The position numbers and the translations under genes were made by a program. 32,460 nucleotides of DNA from Flavobacteriaceae bacterium (lineage in GTDB: Bacteria; Bacteroidota; Bacteroidia; Flavobacteriales; Flavobacteriaceae), in the NCBI GenBank assembly GCA_020435885.1, contig JAGQYU010000067.1:1-32460 (forward strand), in the 5' to 3' direction. Under the pieces are notes generated by a model. It was not told the origin of the DNA. It saw only the letters and a program-made list of their open reading frames with translations, and ran no database searches. Shown in pieces: positions 12,916 through 27,554 of this stretch. The number at the start of each line of letters is the position of its first letter. The stretch's first letter is position 1.

Positions 12916-14919
12916 ATGACCCGATCCATAGCCGATACCATAGCTGCACTTCGCAAAGAGCTCGAAAAACATAATTATAATTATTACGTACTGGACAATC
13001 CAACCATATCAGATTATGAATTTGATATGAAATTAAAAGAGTTGGAGGCTTTGGAAGCTGCACATCCTGAGTTCTTTGACCCGAATTCGCCAACACAGCG
13101 TGTAGGAGGGCAGATCACTAAGAATTTCACTACGGTAGCACATAAGAACAGAATGTATTCGTTGGATAACAGCTATTCTAAAGAAGACCTGCTTGATTGG
13201 GAAAAACGTATTGAAAAGATATTAGGAACTTCTCAAGTGGCCTATACGTGTGAGCTTAAATACGACGGAGCTTCTATAAACCTGACGTATGAGAACGGAG
13301 CTTTAAAAAGTGCTGTTACCAGAGGTGATGGAGTGCAAGGCGATGATGTAACTACGAATATAAAAACCATACGTTCTATACCCTTGCATTTACATGATGA
13401 TACCCTTGCAGATTTTGAGATACGCGGAGAAATTATTTTGCCTTTAGATGGATTCAACAAAATGAACAAAGAGCGTGTAGAGGCCGGTGAAGATCCTTAC
13501 AGAAATCCACGGAATACGGCTAGTGGCAGTCTAAAACTGCAAGACAGCACCGAAGTGGCCAACAGGCCTTTGGATTGTTTGTTGTACCATGTAGTTGCTA
13601 ATTACAATCCGTTTAAAACACATGATGAGGCCTTGCAATTTGCTTCAAAAGCAGGATTTAAAATACCGAATACTTACAAAGTAGTTCATTCTGTTGATGA
13701 GATATTTGAGTATATCAATTTTTGGGATACGGAACGCCACAAGTTGCCTTATGAAACGGATGGAGTAGTGGTTAAGGTAAATTCCATTGCACATCAAGAG
13801 GAATTGGGTTATACGGCTAAATCCCCCAGATGGGCTATTGCGTATAAGTACAAAGCGGAGCAAAAAAGTACTGTTTTAGAAAGTATTTCGTATCAGGTAG
13901 GCCGTACTGGGGCTATAACACCGGTGGCAAACTTAGCACCTATAGAATTGGCAGGGACTATAGTAAAAAGGGCTTCACTACACAATGCTGATCAAATAGC
14001 TAAGTTGGATATCCGTGTTAATGATACTGTTTTTGTAGAAAAAGGAGGGGAGATCATCCCAAAAGTTATTGGAGTTGACCTTTCTAAACGCCCTGATGAT
14101 TCTACACCAACACAATACATTGCACATTGCCCGGAATGTAATACGGAACTGATCCGTAAAGAAGGAGAGGCACAACACTATTGCCCAAATGAATATGGTT
14201 GCCCACCACAGATTACCGGGAAAATTCAACATTTTATCAGCCGAAAGGCTACGGATATTGAAGGACTTGGAGCTGAAACGGTTGAATTACTCTATAAAGA
14301 AGGTCTGATACAAAATTATGCCGATCTGTACGAACTGAAAGAAGAGCAAATTATTCCGCTAGAGCGTATGGCAGAGAAATCTGCCGAGAATATGGTAAAA
14401 GGCATTGAAAAATCTAAAGAAATACCTTTTGAACGTGTTTTGTTTGCTTTGGGGATACGCTATGTGGGCGAAACGGTTTCTAAAAAACTGGCTCGTCATT
14501 TTAAGAGTATTGATAGATTGATGGAAGCCTCTTTTGACGAGCTGATCCAAGTGGATGAAATTGGTGATAAAATAGCCCAGAGTATCATCATCTTTTTTGC
14601 TGATGAACAGAACAGAACCATTGTTGAGCGGTTAAAAAATTATGGAGTTCAGCTAGCACTTTCTGCCGAAGTGTTAGAAAACCAAAAAGATACATTGCAA
14701 GGTAAAACTTTTGTGGTATCCGGTGTTTTTGAAAAGATAAGCAGAGATGATCTTAAAAAGTCTATAGAAAACAACGGAGGCAAAGTTTCCAGTTCTATAT
14801 CAAAAAAAACCGACTATGTTATAGCCGGTGATAATATGGGGCCCAGTAAGCGAGTAAAAGCTGAGGAACTGGGAATTCCTATCATTTCTGAAGATGATTA
14901 TTTCGCCATGATAGATTAA
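12916..14919 (+). CDS. ligA: NAD-dependent DNA ligase
   Basis: ELKYDG adenylation motif, Zn finger CPEC..C..C, HhH repeats, C-terminal BRCT. Confidence 0.98.
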
Positions 14920-15569
14920 ATGCTATCAACAATAATGCGGTTTCTTCGTATCTGAATTTTACCTTCGTTCTCTAAGTTTTTAAGTAAACGAGAAACTACC
15001 ACTCTTGAGGTGTGAATATCATCTGCAATCTCTTGATGAGTGATTACTAGTGTGTTATCCTGCATTATTTGCACTTTGTCTAGCAGATATTTATATAATC
15101 TGTCGTCTAAACGCATAAAGGCCAAACTGTCAATAGATTCTACCATTTCTATCAACCGCATATGATAACTGTCTATAATAAAATGGCGCCAGCTTTCATA
15201 CTTTTTAAGCCAATCATCTACTTTATCTACGGGTATAAAAACGCTTTCAGTATCTTTTTCGGCTACACCTCTAAACATACTTTTACTTTTATTGATACAA
15301 TTGATAAAAGAAATGGCACAAGTATCACCTCTTTCTAAGAAGTAGAGTACAATTTCATCGCCTTTTTTGTCTTCTCGGATAATTTTTACAGCTCCATTTA
15401 TAATAAGCGGAACGTGTGTCATATTATCGCCGATATCTATAAGTACTTCGCCATTAGGAATGGTTCTGTAAATACCACAATCTATGATTTCTTCAAATAA
15501 TTCTTTTTCGAATATTCCGGAAAAATAATCACCTAATTTTTCTCTTATAACTTCCTTATCCGTTGTCAT
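14916..15569 (-). CDS. Crp/Fnr family transcriptional regulator (likely start MTTDKE at 15569; ORF track starts at 15617)
   Basis: cNMP-binding-like domain and [24 protein letters not shown]; own -7 element TACATTTG at 15600-15607. Confidence 0.92.
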
Positions 15570-15621
15570 AATTTGTCCTTTGTACATAATGATTTTTATC
15601 AAATGTAGTTTATGCAAAAAT

Positions 15622-15651
15622 AAAAACTCCTGACAATTATCAGGAGTTTTT
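15622..15651 (-). terminator. Intrinsic terminator after the porin gene
   Basis: AAAAACTCCTGA-CAATTA-TCAGGAGTTTTT. Confidence 0.85.
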
Positions 15652-15677
15652 TAATCCAAATAAAAATCTATGAACAA

Positions 15678-25401: not shown

Positions 25402-25480
25402 AAGTTATAAATATTGAGACTGTAATTGCATCAAAGGTTGTAATATATTGTCATATAAATGACTGTAATAATTTACGAAA

Positions 25481-25557
25481 CAAAATTAGGTGACTTGCAT
25501 AGCCCCTGATATGATTTTAGTCATAAAAATAGCAAATTATATGTTACAATTGTTACA
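25481..25557 (-). promoter_or_regulatory. psr operon promoter with CRP-like palindromes
   Basis: -7 element TAATTTTG (minus, 25481-25488); TATGAT-N4-GTCATA (25510-25525); TGTTAC-N4-GTTACA (25542-25557). Confidence 0.72.
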
Positions 25558-25685
25558 GAAAAACCTCTAATTTATGCATATTTCAGAATAGTTGATTGTT
25601 GTTGTTAGTTCATTTTTTGTGATGATATTAAGCAGGTTTTACGCTTAAAAAATTGTAGTTTTGTTACCCTAAGATTCGAGTATTA

Positions 25686-27554
25686 GTGAAAGTTTTAAAG
25701 AAAGAAGTTTTGCCGTTTTTGATGCTTATCGTTGTGATAGGAGCCTACTTTATTTTTAGAAATGTAAAGTTAACTGATGCTGTTTTTAAAGATGGAGATA
25801 ATTATTCTTCGGTAAAAACTGATAAAGAATCTTGTTTACAATGCCATGCTCAGATGACGGGTTTTTCAAAATACCATGATCCAAACAATATTGGATGTGC
25901 AAGTTGCCATTTAGGCGATATAAATTCTACAGATAAAGATGAAGCACATAAAGATATGGTGCTTATCCCCGGGAATTTATCTGATGCAGAAAAGACTTGT
26001 GGTAAGTGTCATATCAATGAACTCAAAAAAATAAATACTTCGTTAATGACAACCAATAGTGGTATTGTTGCAGTTGATAAATTCATTTTCGGTGAGGCGG
26101 ATTCGCCAAATTATCACTACCATATAAAAGATATACAACAATCCCCGGCTGATAAACATCTGCGAGATCTCTGCGCCAATTGCCATTTAGGGGCAGAAAA
26201 AAAAGAATTTGGAGGCATAACGGAGCTGAGTAGAGGAGGCGGTTGCAACGCTTGTCATTTAAACTATTCTGAAAGTGCTACAAAAGGTTTGGCAGAATAC
26301 TTAAGCTCTAGCAAAAAGGAGTTGCCAAAAGTACATCCGTCCACAGATATTTTTGTAAAGGATGAGCATTGTTACGGTTGTCATAGCCGTTCTAGCAGAA
26401 TTTCTACTAATTATCAAGGCTGGTACGAAACACTATTGGATGAAGAAGATGTTGTTGGAGATACAAATTATAAAGTGGCTGAAGATAAACGTGTGTATGG
26501 TTTTATGGGGGAAGATGTGCATCATGCAAAAGGGATGCTATGTATTGATTGTCATTCTTCACATGAAGTGATGGGAGATGGAAAAACTTACACACACGAG
26601 GAAGATGCTGTGCATGTACAATGTTCTGATTGTCATATAAAAGAAAAACCAAACACATTGTCATATAACGAGTTAGATACAGAATCGTCATTGGTTTTTT
26701 TGCATAGAGATTATAAACATACCGATAAGCAACTACTTAAAGTTAAAAAAGACGGACATCCTTTGGTGAATACATATTTGGATGAAGATGGTGAGCTGTA
26801 TTTGCTAAGCAAAAAGGATGGAACAAAACATTTAATAAAAAAGCAACCTGATGTTTGTGCCAGAGATGTGGCTCATTCTAATGTAACGTGTGCAGCCTGT
26901 CACTCGCAGTGGACATCCAGATGTATCGGCTGTCACAACACTTTTGATAAAAATGATAAAGGTTTTGATCTATTAGACAGAAAAGATATTACAGGCAAAT
27001 GGTCTGAGCATGTTTTTGAGTTTTCTGCAGAGAGGCCTGCACTTGGTGTACGGAAAGACAGTACAGGCTATACCATTGAACCTGCCGTACCGGGGATGAT
27101 ATTGACTATAGATCATCAAAGTTTTAGCGGAGATGTAAATGATAAAACAGCATTCCACAGATTATATGCGCCTAATTCTCCTCATACAACCAGTAAAGAG
27201 GTAAGAGATTGTAAATCGTGTCATGCAAATCCGATGGCAATTGGCTACGGAAAAGGAACGTTGCTTTATAAAGATGGAGTTTGGAATTTTACACCGGAAT
27301 ATGCTCAAAATCCAAATGATGGACTGCCGGAAGATGCTTGGGTGCCATTTTTAGAAGAGCCTAAAGCTAAAGTACTTTCTACAAGGACTAATTTTAAACC
27401 TTTTACTGTTGATCAACAGAAAAGAATTCTGTTGGTTGGTGCTTGTTTGCAATGCCATAAAGATGATTCTAAAGTAATGCAGCAAACTTTATATGAAGGT
27501 TTAGATGTGGTACTTAAAAATATAAGTAAACAATGTATATTGCCTAAACAATGA
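25686..27554 (+). CDS. Membrane-anchored multiheme cytochrome c (12 CxxCH motifs)
   Basis: GTG start, N-terminal TM helix, 12 CxxCH counted by eye; -7 element TAGTTTTG at 25656-25663. Confidence 0.92.
   Translation: MKVLKKEVLPFLMLIVVIGAYFIFRNVKLTDAVFKDGDNYSSVKTDKESCLQCHAQMTGFSKYHDPNNIGCASCHLGDINSTDKDEAHKDMVLIPGNLSDAEKTCGKCHINELKKINTSLMTTNSGIVAVDKFIFGEADSPNYHYHIKDIQQSPADKHLRDLCANCHLGAEKKEFGGITELSRGGGCNACHLNYSESATKGLAEYLSSSKKELPKVHPSTDIFVKDEHCYGCHSRSSRISTNYQGWYETLLDEEDVVGDTNYKVAEDKRVYGFMGEDVHHAKGMLCIDCHSSHEVMGDGKTYTHEEDAVHVQCSDCHIKEKPNTLSYNELDTESSLVFLHRDYKHTDKQLLKVKKDGHPLVNTYLDEDGELYLLSKKDGTKHLIKKQPDVCARDVAHSNVTCAACHSQWTSRCIGCHNTFDKNDKGFDLLDRKDITGKWSEHVFEFSAERPALGVRKDSTGYTIEPAVPGMILTIDHQSFSGDVNDKTAFHRLYAPNSPHTTSKEVRDCKSCHANPMAIGYGKGTLLYKDGVWNFTPEYAQNPNDGLPEDAWVPFLEEPKAKVLSTRTNFKPFTVDQQKRILLVGACLQCHKDDSKVMQQTLYEGLDVVLKNISKQCILPKQ

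Follow-up and report, generated by a model that had tools for sequence, protein, structure and literature searches.

The subject of this analysis is a 12-gene cluster of a flavobacterium (Flavobacteriaceae bacterium, assembly GCA_020435885.1), studied in a window of 32,460 nucleotides, that is, the whole stretch of contig JAGQYU010000067.1 that was analysed and to which coordinates refer unless another contig or locus is named. The cluster (14916..27554) comprises eleven genes on the minus strand, in the order psrA, psrB, psrC, YeeE half 1, YeeE half 2, GGC1, GGC2, rhdE, rhdL, a porin gene and a Crp/Fnr-family regulator gene, and a divergent, plus-strand gene for a 12-heme cytochrome. It is probably read as three transcription units, because the cytochrome gene is divergent and two minus-strand hairpins divide the remainder: one with a T run after GGC2 (19152..19172), the likely terminator of a psrA-GGC2 unit, and a perfect inverted repeat after the porin gene (15626..15647), also a likely terminator. 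The original prediction had described an island with cysteine (Cys)-bearing proteins for every layer of the envelope, which would relay persulfide sulfur to a polysulfide reductase. All 12 open reading frames are present with the features named there; an island in the sense of recent, horizontally acquired foreign DNA is ruled out by a guanine-plus-cytosine (GC) content equal to that of the surroundings and by flanking genes that are often the same in relatives. In our estimate the balance tips slightly towards the cluster being a sulfane-sulfur conduit with PsrABC as electron sink, in which the Cys-bearing exported proteins would carry polysulfide sulfur as persulfides. This reading draws on the genes, their motifs, conservation and co-occurrence and the operator boxes, together with membrane sides predicted by model.

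PsrA (23155..25401, minus strand) is a molybdopterin enzyme of the Psr/Phs branch exported by twin-arginine translocation (Tat). It has a Tat motif (SRRTFIK), an N-terminal 4Fe-4S motif (C55, C58, C62 and C91) and molybdopterin domains (PF00384, PF01568 and PF04879), and its best match in the PDB is Thermus thermophilus PsrABC (2VPW-2VPZ, E 1.7e-193), with which the window system shares the NrfD-type anchor and an aligned active-site Cys. That residue, C182 in the window protein and conserved in 35 of 35 sequences, is presumably a molybdenum (Mo) ligand. The best NCBIfam model is PhsA (NF012032), at 497.5 bits under a cut-off of 694, so that PsrA does not count as a PhsA equivalog. PsrB (22625..23158, minus strand) carries four 4Fe-4S clusters according to profile matches and sequence motifs, and PsrC (21669..22610, minus strand; PF03916, E 2.5e-49) is the NrfD-type, quinol-reacting anchor. 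PsrABC may reduce polysulfide or thiosulfate. The same genome, placed among the flavobacteria by what its nearest proteins are called, encodes TatC, MoaA/C/D/E, MoeA and a MobA-like protein; it is 87% complete.

Two exported proteins of the cluster have tandem rhodanese domains. RhdL (16848..17843, minus strand) is a lipoprotein with the active-site Cys present in both domains (CYTGQ twice), and its C22, C123 and C276 are found in 120 of 120 homologues. In all of these the stretch from +2 to +6 after the lipidated Cys has a net negative charge, and 89 have K/R-x-(D/E)2; the stretch mostly reads C-D-(K/R)-G-D-D, and C-D-Q-G-D-T in the window copy. Since these acidic residues resemble the Bacteroidota export signal for surface lipoproteins, C-X-K-(D/E)2 with net negative charge (PMC5080379), they suggest that RhdL may be exposed at the cell surface. 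RhdE (17889..18878, minus strand) has a signal-type N-terminus without a lipobox and is predicted to be periplasmic. In the window copy both rhodanese domains carry the active-site motif (CYSGQ and CLTGQ), but this does not hold for the family: C119 is found in 20 of 20 relatives and the second active-site Cys, C274, in only five of 20, and only the first domain is predicted to be conservedly active. The known counterpart is Sud of Wolinella succinogenes, a periplasmic rhodanese that speeds polysulfide supply to Psr, from which RhdL and RhdE differ by their tandem domains.

The porin (15678..16730, minus strand; Pfam Porin_O_P) is modelled by AlphaFold2 as a 16-strand barrel (confidence score, pLDDT, of 82) with fold matches to classical porins. 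Its three Cys are conserved among 120 homologues of 55-100% identity (C26 in 119, C137 in 119 and C258 in 120). With sides assigned by counting strands from a periplasmic N-terminus, C26 (in QGC) is predicted to lie on a disordered periplasmic N-terminal extension before strand 1, C137 inside the pore in constriction loop L3, and C258 (in GGC) in outer loop L6. The porin profile finds three of 400 genomes of the phylum at E<=1e-40. The protein is a distant relative of ExtI (52 bits against a model cut-off of 150), and the membrane-anchored cytochrome (25686..27554, plus strand; 12 CxxCH motifs) is a relative of ExtM (E 4e-75, 253 bits against a cut-off of 800), so both are homologues, not members, of the ext families. 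Fusions of cytochrome relatives to ExtP/ExtQ-like parts in other Bacteroidota suggest that the cytochrome may be part of a second electron route.

Geobacter ext clusters had been named as possible partial analogues. In the Geobacter sulfurreducens extHIJKL(MccSep)MNOPQS cluster (PMC5877670, PMC13510729), a rhodanese lipoprotein, a phosphate-porin-like channel and a 12-heme ExtM-type cytochrome likewise lie beside a periplasmic polysulfide reductase, MccSep, which is required for the respiration of elemental sulfur (S0; PMC13510729). The flavobacterial cluster differs in its catalyst, Mo-containing PsrABC instead of the heme/selenocysteine (Sec) enzyme MccSep, in the added split YeeE and two tail proteins, and in two extra Cys on the porin itself; MccSep/ExtKL, ExtJ, ExtN and ExtO/P/Q are absent from it. 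Queries with the ExtJ and ExtN of a Deferribacteraceae locus (L150) had no match in the 87% complete flavobacterial genome, and no five-heme frame is listed there. RhdL and RhdE are not ExtH orthologues: neither matches the ExtH model NF040901 at E 0.001, and the same model matches proteins of L150, L186 and L187. We compared these systems across 251 genomes of another phylum, 12 of which hold an ExtI above the cut-off and six of whose 12 loci are full MccSep-type clusters (L186-L191). In all six, ExtH ends in a Gly/Ser-rich tail with a terminal Cys and ExtJ ends in (L/M)QGC. The Deferribacteraceae locus (L150:3250-15965) carries extH-I-J-M-N followed by psrABC and Rieske/cytochrome b genes, with PsrABC in the place of MccSep.

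C137 of the porin aligns with a Cys in loop L3 of ExtI in ten of ten sequences compared; three of the 12 loci above the cut-off (one split by TGA, two distant) were left out of the alignment. ExtI has no counterparts of C26 and C258, and its L3 Cys has no partner Cys in most ExtI proteins; that of G. sulfurreducens has a single Cys (PMC5877670), which argues against a purely structural disulfide. We infer that Cys functions supplied in trans by ExtH and ExtJ are carried in cis by the flavobacterial porin. Tentatively, with the chances somewhat against it, the porin may be a thiol-lined sulfur conduit that unites in one chain an outer GGC loop, a pore Cys and a periplasmic QGC arm, corresponding in Geobacter to the tail of ExtH, the pore Cys of ExtI and the QGC tail of ExtJ, respectively. 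On that view Gly-Cys-tipped arms would be a widespread currency, as yet without a name, that carries polysulfide sulfur over the outer membrane and periplasm to three unrelated reductases (Mo-Psr, heme/Sec MccSep and octaheme Otr) that act on protein-bound sulfur. Contact with solid S0 is probably not needed, because Geobacter clears sulfur at a distance via soluble polysulfide (PMC13510729). As a separate observation, an ExtI-like porin gene of genome G1027 (L194:7907-9292, plus strand) has an in-frame TGA where three homologues have Cys (in the loop that follows strand 3), with a stable hairpin downstream; SelA is encoded in that genome, making this a candidate Sec-containing porin.

Exported Cys are often disulfide-bonded, and the conserved Cys could instead be structural disulfides or ligands of metals or metalloids such as selenite and tellurite, with the cluster serving to reduce oxyanions of this kind, the role in which ExtI was first described. 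Deletion of extI lowers selenite and tellurite reduction (PMC5877670), and selenite is also a substrate of MccSep. We regard this as improbable given the odd Cys numbers, the single terminal Cys on disordered tails, the L3 Cys standing alone in ExtI, the co-regulation with sulfur genes and PsrA itself, which matches Psr/Phs much more closely than it does the models of selenate or arsenate reductases.

Between PsrC and the rhodaneses are encoded two tail proteins, each with its last residue as its sole Cys. GGC1 (19830..20495, minus strand) is predicted to consist of one transmembrane (TM) helix, a rhodanese fold and a flexible arm of about 40 residues ending in Cys, the 40-residue tail being of low confidence in the predicted structure; GGC2 (19195..19806, minus strand) is a membrane-anchored rhodanese-fold protein with its terminal Cys on a Lys/Pro-rich tail. 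The domain of GGC1 is predicted to face the periplasm because, in natural fusions of YeeE half 2 with a tail protein, the GGC1-type TM helix is retained after a basic loop (positive-inside rule). A catalytic rhodanese has Cys at the start of its active-site loop, as do both RhdL domains and the first RhdE domain; neither tail protein does. In GGC1 the catalytic position is Ser119 and holds Cys in two of 45 homologues, and in GGC2 it is Gly108 and holds Cys in none of 16, whereas the terminal Cys is found in 45 of 45 and 15 of 16, respectively. The missing catalytic Cys also sets both apart from Sud. A Gly-Cys ending is found in no other of the genome's 3316 long reading frames. The two tails resemble each other more within a genome than across genomes (6.4 of 8 versus 4.4; 0 of 20000 shuffles, n=16 genomes), and 99 of 161 tail codons are identical within a genome against 52% across; synonymous differences are retained, a pattern better explained by selection on the peptide than by a recent copying event. 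Selenocysteine read-through was considered for the tails and rejected, as both end in TAA and SelA was not found in the genome. The motif EGGC does occur in three proteins of the cluster, as had been noted, but we reject it as a family signature: Glu is a minority residue at porin C258, where 120 homologues mostly have GGGCG, and tails elsewhere end in KEGC, REGC, RMGC or xGGC, so that what is shared is Gly-Cys.

The sulfur carrier SoxY (PMC11582611) offers a further comparison. It has a fold of its own with a GGCGG arm and works with a SoxZ partner. GGC1 and GGC2 would be like it in holding sulfur on the Cys of a flexible Gly-Gly-Cys arm, and are unlike it in being membrane-anchored, in having the rhodanese instead of the SoxY fold and in ending at the Cys, and are thus not SoxY proteins. 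Next to the tail proteins lie YeeE half 2 (20513..21103, minus strand) and YeeE half 1 (21125..21655, minus strand), both PF04143, with one invariant Cys each (Cys108 and Cys137, both in 54 of 54 sequences). Two half-size subunits with one conserved Cys apiece define the split PmpAB/YedE1E2 transporters (PMC11582611, PMC10812762), to which the pair conforms; it departs from them in being longer and always accompanied by a tail protein, and a separate PmpAB-like pair is encoded on contig C115 of the same genome. The full-length thiosulfate transporter TsuA/YeeE has one chain, nine TM helices and three Cys (PMC7449682), and two half chains with two invariant Cys do not fit that description. A TGA in a YeeE-like gene of locus L168 is not at the Cys position.

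How far the tail proteins belong to Psr was addressed with 40 loci chosen from the best GGC1 matches, weaker matches and some short contigs being left out. All 40 combine both YeeE halves with a tail protein. Psr genes adjoin in 24 and an octaheme cytochrome of the tetrathionate-reductase family in 11 (one locus has both), five have no reductase and one is cut short; the arm is therefore not Psr-specific. A 99% complete genome (G624) has kept Psr, both tail proteins, the rhodaneses and the porin and lacks the YeeE pair (no match to YeeE half 1) and Crp. With tails kept there without YeeE, and YeeE plus tail found without Psr in other genomes, the arm is tied to neither alone. A role of YeeE solely as a helper in molybdenum cofactor maturation is disfavoured, as the module also adjoins the heme enzyme Otr. 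The five loci with split YeeE and a tail protein without a reductase (L016, L029, L030, L042 and L050) in some cases lie beside an exported double-domain sulfurtransferase.

Some PsrA proteins carry a Cys arm of their own. We surveyed 80 PsrA loci from many phyla, of which 74 remained after six partial or frameshifted ones were left out: 13 have a Cys-tipped C-terminal extension, 12 an internal GGC loop and 49 neither. Among the 53 loci with at least 4.5 kb downstream, a YeeE pair lies beside none of nine loop-type, seven of nine arm-type and 20 of 35 armless genes. A GGC loop is present in Thermus PsrA and absent from the window protein; in Thermus-type relatives with the loop a rhodanese adjoins, but no YeeE pair, and five of five genomes with loop-type PsrA gave no match to YeeE half 1. 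Weak YeeE matches were found elsewhere in two of five genomes without YeeE near psrA. In four of seven loci a PsrA arm and the neighbouring tail protein share at least five last residues. A strict complementarity of PsrA arms and tail proteins was rejected, as both occur together in seven loci and neither in 15. A relay of persulfide to a bis-molybdopterin guanine dinucleotide site has precedent (PMC9516567). The low-complexity, Cys-ending extensions are those of L071, L072, L074, L076, L078, L084, L091, L093, L094, L102, L118, L133 and L136, including Thermosulfurimonas and Thermodesulfatator records. Cable-bacteria PsrA (L079, L080, L083, L088, L095, L106 and L107) lies near the window protein in the tree, yet has neither an arm nor a YeeE pair nearby.

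These surveys bear on whether the proteins act in parallel instead of in series. Polysulfide or thiosulfate might simply diffuse through the porin and PsrA reduce the free ion, with the rhodaneses concentrating or buffering sulfur as Sud does, and the tails might belong to a YeeE channel that imports sulfane sulfur into the cytoplasm for assimilation, cofactor synthesis or signalling to the Cys-bearing regulator. To this we give roughly one chance in four. Both YeeE halves and the tail protein are the invariant core at all 40 loci and are often fused, many PsrA lack arms, and a search of the genome (87% complete) for a sulfite reductase domain found none. Split YedE1E2 imports, and does not export, zero-valent sulfur (PMC10812762), and uptake of a Phs product has been proposed (Williams 2022). 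Arms on PsrA itself (13 of 74), including loci without YeeE nearby, speak for the conduit, as do the two tail proteins kept in G624 without a match to YeeE half 1 and the three invariant porin Cys, which would be superfluous in a plain diffusion pore.

The regulator (14916..15617, minus strand; Pfam cNMP_binding and HTH_Crp_2) has Cys100 and Cys107, both conserved in all 18 syntenic copies. Of the Crp paralogues, at least four in this genome, two lack the second Cys. Shared operator boxes had been claimed for the cluster, and boxes are indeed present and commoner than chance, but they are of two different kinds. A motif search placed an FNR-like ATGAC-N4-GTCAT box (18951..18964) and two GTAAC-N4-GTTAC boxes (18995..19008 and 19070..19083) upstream of rhdE, and an FNR-like box (25511..25524) and a GTAAC-N4-GTTAC-type box with one mismatch (25543..25556) between psrA and the cytochrome gene. 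Genome-wide there are 11 GTAAC-N4-GTTAC sites against 2.1 expected (0-7 with other spacers) and nine ATGAC-N4-GTCAT sites against 1.0 expected. In relatives both boxes precede rhdE and psrA, with a constant spacing, but neither rhdL nor the porin gene; allowing up to one mismatch, the GTAAC box precedes 16 of 20 rhdE-type and 12 of 15 psrA-type genes, and none of 19 rhdL or 19 porin genes. Seven of the 11 perfect GTAAC boxes precede genes for sulfur handling or Mo enzymes (rhdE, with two boxes, SQR-like, persulfide-dioxygenase-like and rhodanese genes, another split YeeE pair together with moaA, and another Mo enzyme); the remaining four lie before unrelated or unscanned genes. The ATGAC-N4-GTCAT box and near variants precede an anaerobic set (hemN, hemA, ppdK, pckA, a 2-oxoacid oxidoreductase and cbb3 oxidase), with several other sites having no clear link. 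From these sites we infer dual control by anoxia and sulfane sulfur.

Three further loci of the same genome carry these boxes. One (L154, C198:1411-8600) has, under a GTAAC box, genes for another Mo enzyme, which does not look Tat-exported, and its fused 4Fe-4S/NrfD partner, along with sulfate permease genes and moaD/E; it is possibly a sulfite-oxidising complex. Another (L156-L157; the end of C224, and C226) has persulfide-dioxygenase-like, rhodanese, two SQR-like flavoprotein, thioredoxin and cytochrome bd genes under GTAAC boxes. The third (L159, C274:341-5999) encodes a six-heme lipoprotein, a beta-barrel, a Tat-type 4Fe-4S protein and an NrfD protein under both boxes, an arrangement that may form an electron conduit.

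Sharing of the GTAAC box with SQR-like and persulfide-dioxygenase-like genes would also suit the opposite direction of flow, in which sulfane sulfur made in the envelope by SQR during sulfide detoxification is disposed of or recycled outward through the porin, or Psr acts as a sulfide dehydrogenase. Thiol relays are reversible. Lutibacter profundi, which encodes SQR and a polysulfide reductase, possibly of the kind found in this cluster, showed no anaerobic growth on thiosulfate (PMC5219744), an observation that speaks both for outward flow and against sulfur reduction as proposed here. Outward flow is nonetheless a long shot in our judgement: the cluster also bears the box of anaerobic genes, its nearest design counterpart, the ext cluster, serves S0 reduction, and the tail module partners reductases.

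Among 400 genomes of the organism's own family, this PsrA is found in 30 (E<=1e-150) and RhdL/RhdE-type proteins in 23 (E<=1e-20), all 23 of which are among the 30 with this PsrA, the base rate being 30 in 400; these genomes are related, not independent, and the overlap is a nesting, not a test. The region was examined in 21 of the 23 relatives (uninterrupted in 12, with a four-gene insertion in one, and split, cut by contig ends or reduced in eight); in the remaining two, RhdE is present alone. Where a rhodanese-porin block is unlinked, as in five genomes, PsrA is in every case encoded elsewhere. In the phylum at large the outer tier is rarer than the inner module and, judged by these distributions, is an add-on to it.

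A sulfane-sulfur conduit could work as follows, the persulfide chemistry and the direction, order and substrate of transfer being our proposal. RhdL, predicted at the surface, would load the L6 Cys of the porin with sulfane sulfur, which would pass via the L3 pore Cys to the predicted periplasmic N-terminal arm and then to soluble RhdE. The Cys-tipped arms of GGC1 and GGC2 would present the sulfur to PsrA, where quinol electrons delivered through PsrC and PsrB would reduce it to sulfide. It is likely that these arms supply the split YeeE channel, for import, as well, and the network is probably branched, not one line. The system would be switched on by low oxygen together with sulfane sulfur and would likely act as an electron sink or in survival respiration, which does not imply that the cells grow on sulfur alone. 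The original prediction had made itself dependent on conservation of the Cys motifs among syntenic homologues, and those of the porin, RhdL, the first RhdE domain, the YeeE halves and the tail tips are indeed invariant or nearly so. This conservation, the co-occurrence with PsrA and the Cys arm found in cis on PsrA in other phyla all favour a Cys-to-Cys relay to PsrA, but a single linear relay ending there is not supported, given the loci with YeeE and tail beside no reductase (5/40) or an octaheme reductase (11/40) and the 15 of 53 countable PsrA loci with neither an arm nor YeeE nearby.

These same loci weigh against the conduit as a whole, as do several other points. Seven of the 30 family genomes with this PsrA have no rhdL/rhdE match, so the extra tiers are dispensable elsewhere, and loop-type PsrA forms one clade in the tree and hence counts as one event. 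The export signal of RhdL resembles the defined signal without matching it exactly, and the second RhdE active-site Cys is not conserved. Direct Cys-to-Cys transfer in YeeE-type channels has been questioned, the Cys lying about 7 Å apart (PMC11582611), and in Caldithrix abyssi thiosulfate only aids fermentation (PMC9324843).

The full combination had been held to be undescribed, which overstates its novelty. A phsABC-pmpAB-sulfurtransferase cluster of Ca. Electryonea, Ca. Lernaella and Caldithrix abyssi (PMC9324843) has the same inner six-gene arrangement, including a transporter-sulfurtransferase fusion; in the accessible text of that paper the lost catalytic Cys and the terminal Cys go unmentioned, and there is no outer-membrane tier, cytochrome or regulator. 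For Desulfurivibrio dismutans (PMC12142623; Sorokin 2025), lipoprotein sulfurtransferases, a porin and YeeE/YedE have been proposed to bring polysulfide to Psr; the genes there lie in several loci of a sulfur disproportionator, the accessible text describes no Cys-bearing porin or Cys-tipped arms, and the model is itself a proposal. What does appear new is the three-Cys porin and the shared arm design: a literature search, whose coverage took in few subscription papers, found no description of such a porin, of Cys-tipped pseudo-rhodaneses or of the tails of ExtH, ExtJ and PsrA. The cluster is real and conserved, a variation on known sulfur-respiration systems, with a relay that is plausible but branched and less unprecedented than claimed.

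The hand-off of sulfur across the envelope to a reductase is a step still unexplained in sulfur-respiring bacteria, and the cluster names candidate residues for the route. Since the comparison identifies counterparts of these residues in ExtH, ExtI and ExtJ, the question is open to study with point mutants in G. sulfurreducens and in cultured flavobacteria; proteins of Lutibacter and Maribacter species are among the homologues of cluster proteins. The survey also suggests that about 7% of the sampled family genomes (30/400), from a family mostly regarded as aerobic degraders, can use sulfur to discharge electrons once oxygen runs out.

A few minor observations concern RNA records and the surroundings of the cluster. 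Four runs of one wastewater study hold 24-42% of sampled words, and contigs from them cover parts of most cluster genes and flanking genes; they were not used as evidence, as level and strand are not readable and DNA carry-over is possible. A gene at the window start (94-1572, plus strand), which we take to be DnaA-like from its sequence, raises the possibility that the cluster lies near a replication origin. A ClpP-like, SDH-type serine protease is encoded by a lone gene (10896-11756, minus strand) in a stretch of low GC content (29%), flanked by gapA-like and EamA genes, and a gene at 30815-31852 (plus strand) encodes the cysteate synthase CapA, above the model cut-off, of the sulfonolipid pathway.

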